Shown: positions 7,461 through 52,748 of the stretch, piece after piece
Layout of the letters: every line of letters begins with the position of its first letter
Numbering within the stretch: the stretch's first letter is position 1
Sequence record: PV660457
Length of the DNA: 52,748 nucleotides
Source: Escherichia phage LF82-19
Direction: 5' to 3' (one strand)
The notes under the pieces: generated by a model
The model's database searches: none
The model's input: only the letters and a program-made list of their open reading frames with translations
What the model was told of the DNA's origin: nothing
Made by a program: the position numbers and the translations under genes

Positions 7461-7868
7461 ATGAACGAAGATGAAATGAAGATCGCAGAGATTATGCGAA
7501 AGCTTGCGCCAGCGCTAAAGAACGTGCCAGATCAGACGATTGTTGTTTGGATTAACCTTGCGGAAATGTTCGTGTGTGCCAATAAGTTTGGCGACAAGTA
7601 TCACCAGGCCGTCGCACTCTATACGATGCACCTGATGTTCCTTGATGGCGCGATGAAGGGCGAGAAAGAAACTCTTGAGAGTTATTCACGTCGTGTAACG
7701 TCATTCACTCTGAGCGGTGAATTTTCCACGAGCTACGGGGCAGTGACCGCCAATAATACCGGGCGATCAATCCATGATACGCCATGGGGCAAAATGTACG
7801 ATATTCTCAACAAGAAAAAAGGCGGCGGGTTCGGCCTGATTTCAGGAATCAGAGGTTGTGGGCGATGA
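7461..7868 (+). CDS. head-tail connector / adaptor (putative)
   Basis: 135 aa, position between capsid and tail genes. Confidence 0.4.
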   Translation: MNEDEMKIAEIMRKLAPALKNVPDQTIVVWINLAEMFVCANKFGDKYHQAVALYTMHLMFLDGAMKGEKETLESYSRRVTSFTLSGEFSTSYGAVTANNTGRSIHDTPWGKMYDILNKKKGGGFGLISGIRGCGR

Positions 7869-47555: not shown

Positions 47556-47723
47556 ATGTTCGAAGAAAAGAAACACAGGCCGGAACAAGCTTACTCAAGG
47601 GTATCACGCACCGTTAAAGAGCGTAGGCGCTGGGTTAAGTATTTCATGAATCAAGGCCACACCAGATCGGTTGCGATTGGCCTGGCTAAGTGGGCAACAA
47701 ACAACTACAACGGGAAAAACTGA
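47556..47723 (+). CDS. small basic protein (55 aa)
   Basis: MFEEKKHR ... ; stop overlaps next ATG (TGATG); not listed separately in track. Confidence 0.35.
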   Translation: MFEEKKHRPEQAYSRVSRTVKERRRWVKYFMNQGHTRSVAIGLAKWATNNYNGKN

Positions 47724-48355
47724 TGAACTTTCAAATGTACACTATGATCAAGCATCACTTACTTACTCATCCAGATCAGCCAGTCTACATCTTCGACTAT
47801 GACGGCACGCTTTCGGATGGCTCTCACCGACTGGACAAGTTGCCAACAAAAGATTTGCACCTCACCGAAAGCTGGGAAGAGTTCAATCGCCTTGCTTCAT
47901 TCGATGAGCCGATCGAAACAACCATTCAGGTGATGAATTCACTTTATAAGGCTGGCGCTTTCGTTATCGTGTTAACCGGGCGCGCCGATAGCGTTGTTGA
48001 AGAGTCAACACAATGGCTGCATGATGCTGGGGCGAAATATACAGTGATGGTGATGCGTGGGCGTGACGACAATCGCAAGGACACGATCATCAAGGAGGAA
48101 TTCTTGCGCTACATCGGACTTGAGCGAATTACAGCGGCGTGGGATGATAGCCCAAAAGTGATCGAGCATTTCCGATCGCTGGGCATCACAACCTACCAGG
48201 TTTGTGATTATGGCGATAAGACTCACGCGCATCTACAGTCACACGGCGTGAAAGATGCTGGCGGAGAGTGTGAGCATATTTGGGAGCGTCACAGTATTGG
48301 TGACGATTATTATGAATGCTGTGTTTCATGCGGCAGATCAAGAGGCATTAAGTAA
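47723..48355 (+). CDS. HAD-family phosphatase (polynucleotide 3'-phosphatase-like)
   Basis: FDYDGTL (DxDGT) motif I near N-terminus; start at 47723 not 47690. Confidence 0.6.
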   Translation: MNFQMYTMIKHHLLTHPDQPVYIFDYDGTLSDGSHRLDKLPTKDLHLTESWEEFNRLASFDEPIETTIQVMNSLYKAGAFVIVLTGRADSVVEESTQWLHDAGAKYTVMVMRGRDDNRKDTIIKEEFLRYIGLERITAAWDDSPKVIEHFRSLGITTYQVCDYGDKTHAHLQSHGVKDAGGECEHIWERHSIGDDYYECCVSCGRSRGIK

Positions 48356-48963
48356 TGGCAACTATCATCATTCTGAATGCGCCGCCGCGCGCCGGGAAAG
48401 ACACGATCGCGAAAATCATCGACGAGCAATACGGCTTGCCAGTTGTGAGCTTCAAAACTCCGATGTTCAACATTGCTCGCGGCATCTTGGGCGAAGCGGA
48501 TTTTAAAGAGTTCATGGCGGTTTACGAAACAGACCGCAAGGACACACAGCCGTTAAGTATTCTGCATGGCAGCACTTGCCGCGAGTTTATGATCTGGATT
48601 AGCGAATCCGTGATTAAGCCTCATTTCGGCAAGAAGCATTTCGGCTGGCTTATGGCTGATTTGCTCAGCGAAATGGAGGATGATGTTGATCTCACAATTT
48701 GCAGCGATGGCGGGTTCCCGGATGAGGTAGAGGCGTTGATTGACTTCGGGCACCGTGTCAAGCTGGTTCGTATGCACCGTGAAGGCTTCGACTTCTCGAA
48801 AGATAGCCGTGACTACATCTACCTTTCCGAAGAGTACAAGAGCAAGCCTGGTGTTGTTGAGTTCGATCTGACATTGCAGGACGGTTGCCCTAATCTGGCT
48901 GCTGAGACTATCGCGTCATTGTTCATTGCCCATCATAAACCAGATAACGAGATCCCTTGGTAA
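48355..48963 (+). CDS. P-loop kinase (polynucleotide or nucleotide kinase-like)
   Basis: Walker A-like NAPPRAGKDT; ATGA-coupled to the phosphatase. Confidence 0.55.
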   Translation: MATIIILNAPPRAGKDTIAKIIDEQYGLPVVSFKTPMFNIARGILGEADFKEFMAVYETDRKDTQPLSILHGSTCREFMIWISESVIKPHFGKKHFGWLMADLLSEMEDDVDLTICSDGGFPDEVEALIDFGHRVKLVRMHREGFDFSKDSRDYIYLSEEYKSKPGVVEFDLTLQDGCPNLAAETIASLFIAHHKPDNEIPW

Positions 48964-51780: not shown

Positions 51781-51986
51781 TGTTTAAGCATCTGCCAAAG
51801 AAAGGCGAAATCATTCGCTGTGATTCAGTAGTTGGAGCCGCGCCGTTTATGGTTGGCGTTGAGTACACCGTTGAACATGTTGATCGCAAAGTTGGTCACA
51901 TCTACGTTTACGGTGACGAAGGCAACCTCGAGGCGATCGACTACCCGCAAGACGCTGTACACGGAAAGTTTTCAAAAGTTGATTGA
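51780..51986 (+). CDS. small protein, possible MKVKC-family relative
   Basis: IIRCDSVVGAAPFMVGVEY segment. Confidence 0.4.
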   Translation: MFKHLPKKGEIIRCDSVVGAAPFMVGVEYTVEHVDRKVGHIYVYGDEGNLEAIDYPQDAVHGKFSKVD

Positions 51987-52150
51987 CGACACCTTCGCTG
52001 AGTGGTAAATTAAAAAGCGTAGACAGAAGAGGCGCTTAGAGCGCAACGGGCATCACGTTTGATGCAACTTAGTTTACAGCGTCATTGATGGCGCTTTCAT
52101 TCGGTGCATAGTGGTAAGCACGCCGTAGACCCGTAAGCGGCACAAATTCA

Positions 52151-52238
52151 GGAAGGTTGGCAGAGTGGACGATCGCGCACGGTTGCTAACCGTCAAGCCG
52201 GAAACGGCTCAAGGGTTCGAATCCCTTACCTTCCACCA
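52151..52238 (+). tRNA. tRNA-Ser (anticodon GCU), class II with long variable arm
   Basis: acceptor GGAAGGT/ACCTTCC, anticodon loop TTGCTAA, variable stem GCCG-gaaa-CGGC, T-arm AAGGG-TTCGAAT-CCCTT, encoded ACCA end; D-stem and anticodon stem slightly imperfect. Confidence 0.6.
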
Positions 52239-52252
52239 ATCAAAGAGGTTTG

Positions 52253-52432
52253 CATGTTTGATGTTAAACTCACTATCTTGTTAATGGGGCGCTCATGCGC
52301 ATCATGCAAGCAACACTTCGAGTGCACCGTTGAGGCGGAAACATCCGAAGATGCCGTGTCAAAGGCAAAGGCAATGGCGGGAGCCGATCCCACTACTCAC
52401 AAGTTTTTAGTTAACTACGTAAGGAAAAAGTA
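52253..52432 (+). CDS. small Cys-containing protein (59 aa)
   Basis: RBS AAGAGG; CASCKQHFEC segment; not in ORF track. Confidence 0.35.
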
Positions 52433-52434
52433 AA

Positions 52435-52668
52435 ATGCTGAATTCAATTTTGTTTATCGTCCTGGGTGTGATTATTGGCGTTATCGTCGTTGTTGCGTGG
52501 GCTGGCCTGTGGTCGCGAAAGCTACTGGCAAAGAACCAATTCGCCTCAGCGCGCTTCGATACGAAATCAAAAGAATGGCGCATTTGCGGCAAGTACGCAA
52601 AGATCGCACAGGAGTTGGTAGACATTCGCGAAGGACGAAAGCCTGGCGCGATTAAGTACATCGACTGA
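52435..52668 (+). CDS. small membrane protein
   Basis: N-terminal TM helix LFIVLGVIIGVIVVVAWAGLW; 77 aa. Confidence 0.4.
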   Translation: MLNSILFIVLGVIIGVIVVVAWAGLWSRKLLAKNQFASARFDTKSKEWRICGKYAKIAQELVDIREGRKPGAIKYID

Positions 52669-52674
52669 TAAACA

Positions 52675-52697
52675 ACCCGCTTCGGCGGGTTTTTTTG
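52675..52697 (+). terminator. rho-independent terminator
   Basis: ACCCGC-ttcg-GCGGGT then TTTTTTTG; third copy of this hairpin. Confidence 0.5.
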
Positions 52698-52708
52698 CGT
52701 CTGCAATC

Positions 52709-52717
52709 TGGTATAAT
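52709..52717 (+). promoter_or_regulatory. extended -10 promoter (TGgTATAAT) reading toward window end and terS
   Basis: followed by RBS AGGAGG at 52734-52739, 9 nt before the window end, which abuts the ATG at position 1. Confidence 0.45.
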
Positions 52718-52748
52718 CGAACCTCATCAACAAAGGAGGGAAGGAACA

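Follow-up and report, generated by a model that had tools for sequence, protein, structure and literature searches.

Positions 52151-52238 on the plus strand of the window, as we call the entire 52,748-base stretch of DNA analysed here, represent what is by sequence and predicted structure a genuine class II tRNA-Ser(GCU) gene. The explanation that we favour with good confidence is that the phage carries a functional gene, which would be co-transcribed with a conserved leader and would supply an isoacceptor reading AGY codons. Adaptation to codon bias is not the reason why the phage keeps this tRNA. The gene is already known, as it is annotated in LF82 phage genomes and in a sister genus, and it is real but ordinary; regarded as a tRNA gene alone, it is of little importance. 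The leader is the more novel item of the region, the tRNA having been inserted immediately behind it.

Identity, structure and conservation of the tRNA gene

ARAGORN, a check that the first-pass annotation of this DNA had itself proposed, called tRNA-Ser(gct) with the anticodon at nucleotide 35 as the sole tRNA in the window, and the pseudogene or non-tRNA score that had been named as contrary evidence was not obtained. In a search of the whole window, Rfam family RF00005 matched positions 52151-52235 over its full length (model positions 1-71) with 44.9 bits and E = 2.1e-06, the gathering score of this family being 29 bits. RF00005 was the only Rfam family above threshold anywhere in the window. 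The two independent predictors concur on coordinates and anticodon, and the claim of an 88-nt class II tRNA-Ser(GCU) with an encoded CCA end was thereby reproduced to the nucleotide. The annotation of records PV660453-5 and PV660462 and the covariation described below agree with this assignment.

As read from the sequence and the ARAGORN drawing, the acceptor stem comprises 7 bp (GGAAGGU/ACCUUCC) and is followed by discriminator A73 (position 52235) and the encoded CCA. The D-stem consists of G10-C25, C11-G24, an A12·C23 mismatch (52162/52174) and G13·U22. In the anticodon stem, C27·C43 (52178/52194) is on top, then come four Watson-Crick pairs and the loop UUGCUAA with the anticodon GCU at 52185-52187. 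The variable arm is a 5-bp stem capped with a GAAA loop, and the T-arm is canonical (GGGTTCGAATCCC) with the T-loop TTCGAAT. A C-C first pair in the anticodon stem and a weak D-stem had been pointed out before, and both were confirmed in the ARAGORN structure as C27·C43 and A12·C23. The molecule has the 7-bp acceptor stem, the D, anticodon and T arms, the 7-nt anticodon loop, the U33 and the purine 37 of a tRNA, and the anticodon GCU together with the long variable arm places it among class II tRNA-Ser. The universal tertiary nucleotides (T8, A14, the GG of the D-loop and GGTTCGAATCC of the T-arm) are present and invariant in an alignment of nine homologs. U8, A14, G15 with C48, G18G19, U33, A37, G2:C71 and C11:G24 are all intact, and the A-G-N-G-G spacing of the D-loop resembles that of serV, the E. 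coli tRNA-Ser(GCU).

Bacterial SerRS recognizes G2:C71, C11:G24 and a G15:C48-type core, as established in the tRNA-identity literature. All of these body elements are present in the window tRNA and are common to serV. The minor Ser determinant of the E. coli type, G73, is absent, since the window and phage NBD2 copies have A73 whereas serV has G73. We flag A73 in a phage tRNA-Ser because the LeuRS of E. coli uses this nucleotide as its main determinant. For SerRS, it is mainly the variable arm and the tRNA body that count. Among the phage homologs position 73 is A, G or U, and this variability suggests that it is not critical.

When the window was compared with NBD2, the tRNA proved to be 92.0% identical and the flanking CDS 61.6-84.2% identical, and because of this difference we regard the tRNA-Ser gene as being under purifying selection. 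The NBD2-type tRNA has the same length of 88 nt, anticodon GCU, A73 and encoded CCA as that of the window, and the variable and T arms of the two do not differ. The seven differences between the two include a full compensatory swap at 7:66 (U7-A66 in the window, A7-U66 in NBD2) and changes from G·U to Watson-Crick or the reverse at 5:68 and 28:42 (G5-C68 and A28-U42 in the window, G5·U68 and G28·U42 in NBD2). The remaining changes are one in the D-loop and two, C23 and C43, that make the mismatches of the window, where the NBD2-type copies pair as A-U at 12:23 and as C-G at 27:43. Pairing is kept in four of the six stem substitutions between the two lineages. Comparison with outgroups indicates that what the window has at 7:66, 68 and 23 is the more common state.

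Covariation was assessed with nine distinct 88-nt phage tRNA-Ser(GCU) sequences. Across these homologs 96.6% of the cloverleaf cells are paired, and compensatory double changes occur in 19 of the 26 pairs. The observed values were reached by none of 500 shuffles, and register-shifted alignments were 34-48% paired. The covariance-model score of the window tRNA (44.9 bits) is the lowest of those determined, the others being 46.9 for Aeromonas phage Ahp1, 49.4 for Vibrio phage R29Z, 50.6 for NBD2, 56.8 for serV and 57.2 for phage Sf11. Its cloverleaf was calculated at -25.1 kcal/mol, and an alternative fold is more stable by 9.1 kcal/mol; the corresponding gap is similar in R29Z (8.1 kcal/mol) and Ahp1 (9.2 kcal/mol). 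Repair of both window mismatches in silico lowers the cloverleaf from -25.1 to -32.4 kcal/mol, and the gap shrinks to 3.0.

These values could be taken to mean that the tRNA of the LF82 lineage is drifting towards a pseudogene and that the two mismatches are the first signs of decay. The lowest score among the homologs and the gain in stability upon repair would fit such a process, as would the fact that C27·C43 is confined to the LF82 phages and is the sole unpaired anticodon-stem cell among the nine family members, in a variant that is so far limited to four near-identical isolates of a single site. However, the score still lies 16 bits over the Rfam threshold, the universal nucleotides are intact and the conservation of the tRNA exceeds that of all flanking CDS, which is not what characterizes a pseudogene or a decoy. 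The D-arm GGCAGAG…ATCGCG with A12·C23 occurs also in the tRNA-Ser of Ahp1 and R29Z, and its presence in these unrelated phages indicates that the weak D-stem is a recurrent feature, probably ancestral or tolerated. The 27:43 mismatch lies at the end of a helix, a place at which the disturbance should be smallest. Decay is thus very unlikely in our estimate, and the earlier suggestion of a structural variant or decoy finds no agreement with the intact tertiary nucleotides, the conservation above that of coding neighbours and the A12·C23 shared with R29Z and Ahp1. Most likely the window tRNA gene is functional and stands at the weak end of its own family.

Transcription unit, conserved leader and insertion site

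A consensus scan revealed a sigma-70-like promoter at 51983-52011 on the plus strand, with TTGACG, a 17-nt spacer, TAAATT and a TG upstream of the -10 element. The TTGAC and TGnTA elements of this promoter are conserved in NBD2, T1, SH6 and IME347. Transcription of the leader, the tRNA and two small genes probably starts from this predicted promoter. The first small gene (52254-52433, plus strand, 59 aa) is preceded by the RBS AAGAGG (52243-52248, plus strand), belongs to phrog_2919 (PHROGs E = 3.5e-29) and is listed as a hypothetical protein in LF82-10. The second (52435-52668, plus strand, 77 aa) has a hydrophobic N-terminus and was assigned to DUF7299 (Pfam PF23973, E = 9.9e-22) and phrog_5976 in PHROGs. 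The scan detected no terminator-like sites between the 3' end of the tRNA and the first downstream gene. An intrinsic-terminator-like hairpin with a 7-pair stem (5 G-C) followed by TTTTTG was found at 52674-52698 (plus strand), where it would end the unit before the terminase operon; a rho-independent terminator is annotated at the corresponding site of T1.

Upstream of the tRNA lies a hairpin-rich leader of ~133 nt (52018-52150, plus strand), which carries no annotation in any of the records examined. Between the window and NBD2 its 3' half shows 97% identity, against 62-84% for the flanking CDS. Homologs of promoter and leader are present in T1 (NC_005833, ~7590-7754), IME347, SH6 and NBD2. 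A 50-nt block of the leader is conserved at ~89% identity in T1 and in about 70 further Drexlerviridae records, where the element is likewise without annotation. The invariant leader block reads CGCCG(T/C)AGACCCGTAAGCGGC. Hairpins are predicted on the plus strand at 52032-52044, 52050-52065, 52079-52094, 52104-52121 and 52122-52141, the third of them being present only in the LF82/NBD2 lineage. The hairpin at 52050-52065 exhibits compensatory double changes at four of six pairs across lineages. At 52104-52121 the pairing segments change from GTGC/GCAC to GGGC/GCCC to GTTGC/GCAAC, and at 52122-52141 a C-G pair becomes U·G; the changes in these last two hairpins favour a structure formed at the RNA level on the plus strand. 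The covariation statistics of the leader are thin because only three or four independent lineages contribute. A search of the leader against Rfam gave no matches at E<=10. We consider this element, which is shared across Drexlerviridae, to be a candidate for a new cis-regulatory or non-coding RNA.

The hairpin at 52104-52121 resembles a D-arm (GTGC-ATAGTGGTAA-GCAC). A second tRNA or a tRNA remnant within the leader was considered but is not supported, with ARAGORN finding none in the leaders of the window, T1, SH6 and IME347 and Rfam yielding none at E<=10. The heptamer CGTAGAC was also tried as a genome-wide repeat motif and is not enriched (3 observed, 3.3 expected).

Comparison with T1, SH6 and IME347 identifies the tRNA as a clean insertion between the conserved 3' end of the leader and the RBS of the next gene. 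At the junction T1 reads …AATTC|AAGAGGATTGCATAATG, and the window reads …AATTC-A[tRNA]ATCA|AAGAGGTTTGCATG. By this comparison the tRNA was cleanly inserted in the Vilniusvirus/LF82 lineage. Its position exactly between the leader 3' end (…AATTC) and an RBS, which adjoin in T1, SH6 and IME347, could mean that the tRNA is kept mainly as a module for RNase P and RNase E that parts the leader RNA from the downstream mRNA, with decoding being secondary, and the leader is still 97% conserved though it now lies ~95 nt from the RBS. A pure processing signal, however, would have no need of a conserved anticodon loop, Ser identity elements and an encoded CCA, and yet all of these have been kept. Furthermore, a helix of the leader 3' end with the SD region that would bracket the tRNA, in the manner of the CAAUUC/GGAUUG hairpin of T1, is predicted neither in the window nor in NBD2. 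We assign an almost negligible probability to a role of this kind as the main reason for keeping the tRNA.

Right after the terminator, 52700-52748 on the plus strand contain a promoter like those of the extended -10 type (TGGTATAAT) together with a strong RBS (AAAGGAGGGAAGGAACA) that continues past the window end. Presumably these elements serve the terminase small-subunit gene at position 1 across the circular junction. Like the GenBank records, the window begins at this gene, which shows the 'genome junction' to be a linearisation convention only. The earlier placement of the tRNA just before the genome junction was right in so far as 510 nt separate the tRNA from the end of the window, but the junction itself is merely the linearisation at terS.

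Related phages, the 88-nt tRNA family and host serV

In its first 1500 and its last 1349 bases, the window matches Escherichia phages LF82-10, -11, -12 and -40 with 100% identity, and the records of these phages (PV660453-5, PV660462; host E. coli LF82, soil, Iowa) already annotate tRNA-Ser at this place. The nearest classified relatives are the Vilniusvirus members NBD2, HazelMika and KLB19 (Drexlerviridae). Each of them annotates a 92%-identical tRNA-Ser (NBD2_gt01 in NBD2) at the same position, which is located, as in the window, between the conserved leader and the two small genes plus terminase operon. For KLB19, "one tRNA for serine" without correlation with codon usage has been described (PMC11845039). 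ARAGORN found no tRNA in the homologous region of T1. The first-pass annotation had stated that a tRNA is not expected in a T1-like genome; this is correct for T1, which has none, but does not extend to the LF82 phages and all sampled Vilniusvirus members, where tRNA-Ser is annotated. The tRNA is unusual across T1-like phages broadly, yet expected in the Vilniusvirus/LF82 clade. A single tRNA is a common finding in mid-sized siphophages.

The ends of the window are identical to those of PV660453 (52,895 bp) and PV660454/5/62 (52,979 bp), and the window is 147 or 231 bp shorter than these records, respectively. With matching ends and a shorter length, the window either has an internal indel when set against the deposited LF82 phage genomes or represents another sibling isolate. 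Two annotated reading frames, HazelMika_86 (1533-1790) and KLB19 MVRG_087 (1542-1790; both in coordinates of the compared loci), start inside the tRNA with ~50 nt of overlap, whereas NBD2 and LF82-10 annotate a shorter ORF that starts 3' of the tRNA. The starts of HazelMika_86 and MVRG_087 are probably over-extended start calls.

By its sequence features the window tRNA belongs to a family of 88-nt tRNA-Ser(GCU) that has so far been found in phage genomes and viral contigs. The same 88-nt design is present in Cedarrivervirus Sf11, in Bas81, in KlebP_265-like phages, in Vibrio phage R29Z and in Aeromonas phage Ahp1, and this compact form accordingly recurs in phages as unrelated as Cedarrivervirus, a Vibrio siphophage and an Aeromonas straboviral phage. 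The Sf11-type tRNAs share with the window the loop UUGCUAA, the variable-arm core CGGAAACG and the T-loop TTCGAAT and are identical to it at 67-69 of 88 nt. They differ in having G or U instead of A as the discriminator and in their genome contexts, as they are often found beside tRNA-Arg(UCU) and sometimes tRNA-Met(CAU) (PMC11769527), whereas the window tRNA is solitary. A general avoidance of C32 (s2C32) by phage tRNAs was rejected, since the tRNA-Arg(UCU) of Sf11 and the tRNA-Ser(GCU) of Vibrio phage pv27 keep C32.

A sequence signature for the sister subtypes matched 19 IMG/VR contigs, in 18 of which ARAGORN called tRNA-Ser(GCU). When it was applied to 185,579 bacterial and archaeal species with one genome per species, two stretches matched and ARAGORN detected a tRNA in neither. 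The signature needs AAN before CGGAAACG and the window/NBD2 subtype has AGC at this site, so that this subtype is not matched and the absence from bacterial genomes holds for the sister subtypes only. With regard to tRNA variants of the Vilniusvirus type, IMG/VR yielded only NBD2 and two metagenome-contig scans yielded none.

Host serV resembles the phage tRNA in being of class II, in its anticodon and T-loop, in the A-G-N-G-G spacing of the D-loop and in its encoded CCA. It differs in its length of 93 nt, a variable arm with a 7-bp stem and a 5-nt loop, C32, G73 and a cloverleaf of -42.0 kcal/mol. The phage variable arm is 5 nt shorter than that of serV, and stems and variable arm differ throughout, while the sole difference within the anticodon loop is position 32, where the phage has U and not C. 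Blastn matches to the phage tRNA were absent in 5,426 complete E. coli genomes; this result and the differing architecture led us to rule out that the phage recently captured serV from the host.

In addition, Erwinia jumbo phage Hallingskeid (PQ464590) encodes a 91-nt class II tRNA for Ser with the anticodon ACT (ACU, with an unusual A34) at locus positions 301-391. It shares the acceptor stem GGAAGGT/ACCTTCC and A73 with the window tRNA, and the same blastn match recurs in the Salmonella/Klebsiella jumbo phages 7t3, Munch and fENko-Kae01.

Codon usage and reasons for carrying the gene

The window and T1 were compared by the same ORF-calling method, and 46 annotated E. coli K-12 CDS served as the host sample. 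AGY codons occur at 23.1 per 1000 codons in the window, at 22.8 in T1, which has no tRNA, and at 26.4 in E. coli K-12; their share of all Ser codons is 0.35, 0.33 and 0.47, respectively. In the structural-gene block AGY amounts to 21.3 per 1000. AGC is the most-used Ser codon of the phage (17.7 per 1000). Compared with the E. coli K-12 sample, the phage over-uses TCA (17.4 versus 5.1 per 1000), AGA (5.0 versus 0.8) and AGG (4.2 versus 0.3), none of which can be read by a GCU anticodon. The phage has no tRNA for any of these codons, and T1 is biased alike. Codon compensation was rejected on these grounds: neither overall nor in the structural block is AGY enriched over the host sample or over T1. 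The comparison of AGY usage in phage and host had been suggested beforehand as a check on the idea that the tRNA compensates codon usage, and the outcome contradicts it: AGY is below the host sample and no higher than in tRNA-less T1, and the over-used Ser codon is TCA. Owing to this tRNA-less relative, codon compensation can be excluded cleanly here, and for this reason the gene would be a sensible choice for screens that look for tRNA-targeting defences.

According to our preferred explanation, that of a functional gene supplying an AGY-reading isoacceptor, the promoter at 51983-52011 would give rise to one RNA comprising the leader, the tRNA, the two small genes and the terminator. As in tRNA maturation generally, RNase P and the 3' processing enzymes of the host would excise the tRNA from this transcript and trim it, with CCA being already encoded. 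Host seryl-tRNA synthetase would charge it via the long variable arm, G2:C71 and C11:G24, and the charged tRNA would decode AGC and AGU. E. coli K-12 has a single gene for the AGY-reading tRNA, serV, which was found in one copy within the 50 kb of E. coli K-12 sequence examined. The likely benefit for the phage would be a supply under its own control of the only isoacceptor that reads AGY, whose most-used Ser codon in the phage is AGC, and its copy may act as insurance against loss of the host tRNA during infection by host shut-off, turnover or a tRNase.

A more specific proposal, also raised in the first-pass annotation, is counter-defence, in which the phage copy would be a nuclease-resistant substitute for host tRNA-Ser(GCU) that is cleaved or depleted by a tRNase of the host or of a prophage. 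As codon compensation fails both in the window and in KLB19 (PMC11845039), there is space for a different selective reason. For other tRNAs such counter-defence is an established concept (PMC10264068, PMC11464382, PMC11555353): T5 tRNA-Lys acts against PARIS and T5 tRNA-Tyr against Retron-Eco7. Like the T5 tRNAs, the phage tRNA-Ser is a copy of a host isoacceptor, is not explained by codon usage and departs from the host sequence within the anticodon loop or close to it. For the T5 tRNAs, nuclease, host target and rescue have been demonstrated, whereas the phage tRNA-Ser is known here from sequence and its sole loop difference is at position 32. The anticodon-loop U32, where serV has C32, and a variable arm that is 5 nt shorter and GAAA-capped would be compatible with resistance, although U32 is not universal, as C32 is present in the tRNA-Ser(GCU) of pv27 and in the companion tRNA-Arg(UCU) of Sf11. 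The repetition of the 88-nt design in unrelated phages, the absence of blastn matches in the 5,426 E. coli genomes and the lack of a tRNA gene with the sister-subtype signature in the 185,579 species genomes also count in favour of the proposal. T1 and most Drexlerviridae, however, manage without a tRNA, and a literature search gave no nuclease that targets E. coli tRNA-Ser(GCU). A Pnkp-type end-healing enzyme pair is encoded 3-4 kb upstream of the tRNA and would suit counter-defence, but a Pnkp gene is also present in tRNA-less T1. Taken together, we judge counter-defence to be conceivable but unlikely.

Distinctly unlikely in our view is a broader, joint reading, which would have a mobile 88-nt tRNA-Ser(GCU) lineage serving as a nuclease-resistant stand-in for the host's only AGY tRNA and the leader as a new Drexlerviridae ncRNA. 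The lineage meant here would be horizontally mobile, with U32 and a short GAAA-capped variable arm, and has so far been seen in phage genomes and viral contigs only. If true, such a nuclease-resistant lineage would imply a hitherto undiscovered tRNase defence of Enterobacteria directed against tRNA-Ser(GCU) or against tRNAs with long variable arms.

As to the end-healing enzymes themselves, the reading frame at 47690-48355 (plus strand) encodes a Pnkp-type HAD phosphatase (PF25109; phrog_415, 'polynucleotide kinase'), and a separate P-loop kinase ORF (phrog_139) follows directly at 48355-48963 (plus strand). T1 annotates a single polynucleotide kinase of 176 aa (ST64). Judged by these family assignments, the phosphatase and kinase ORFs look like a split T4-type polynucleotide kinase-phosphatase for the healing of RNA or DNA ends.
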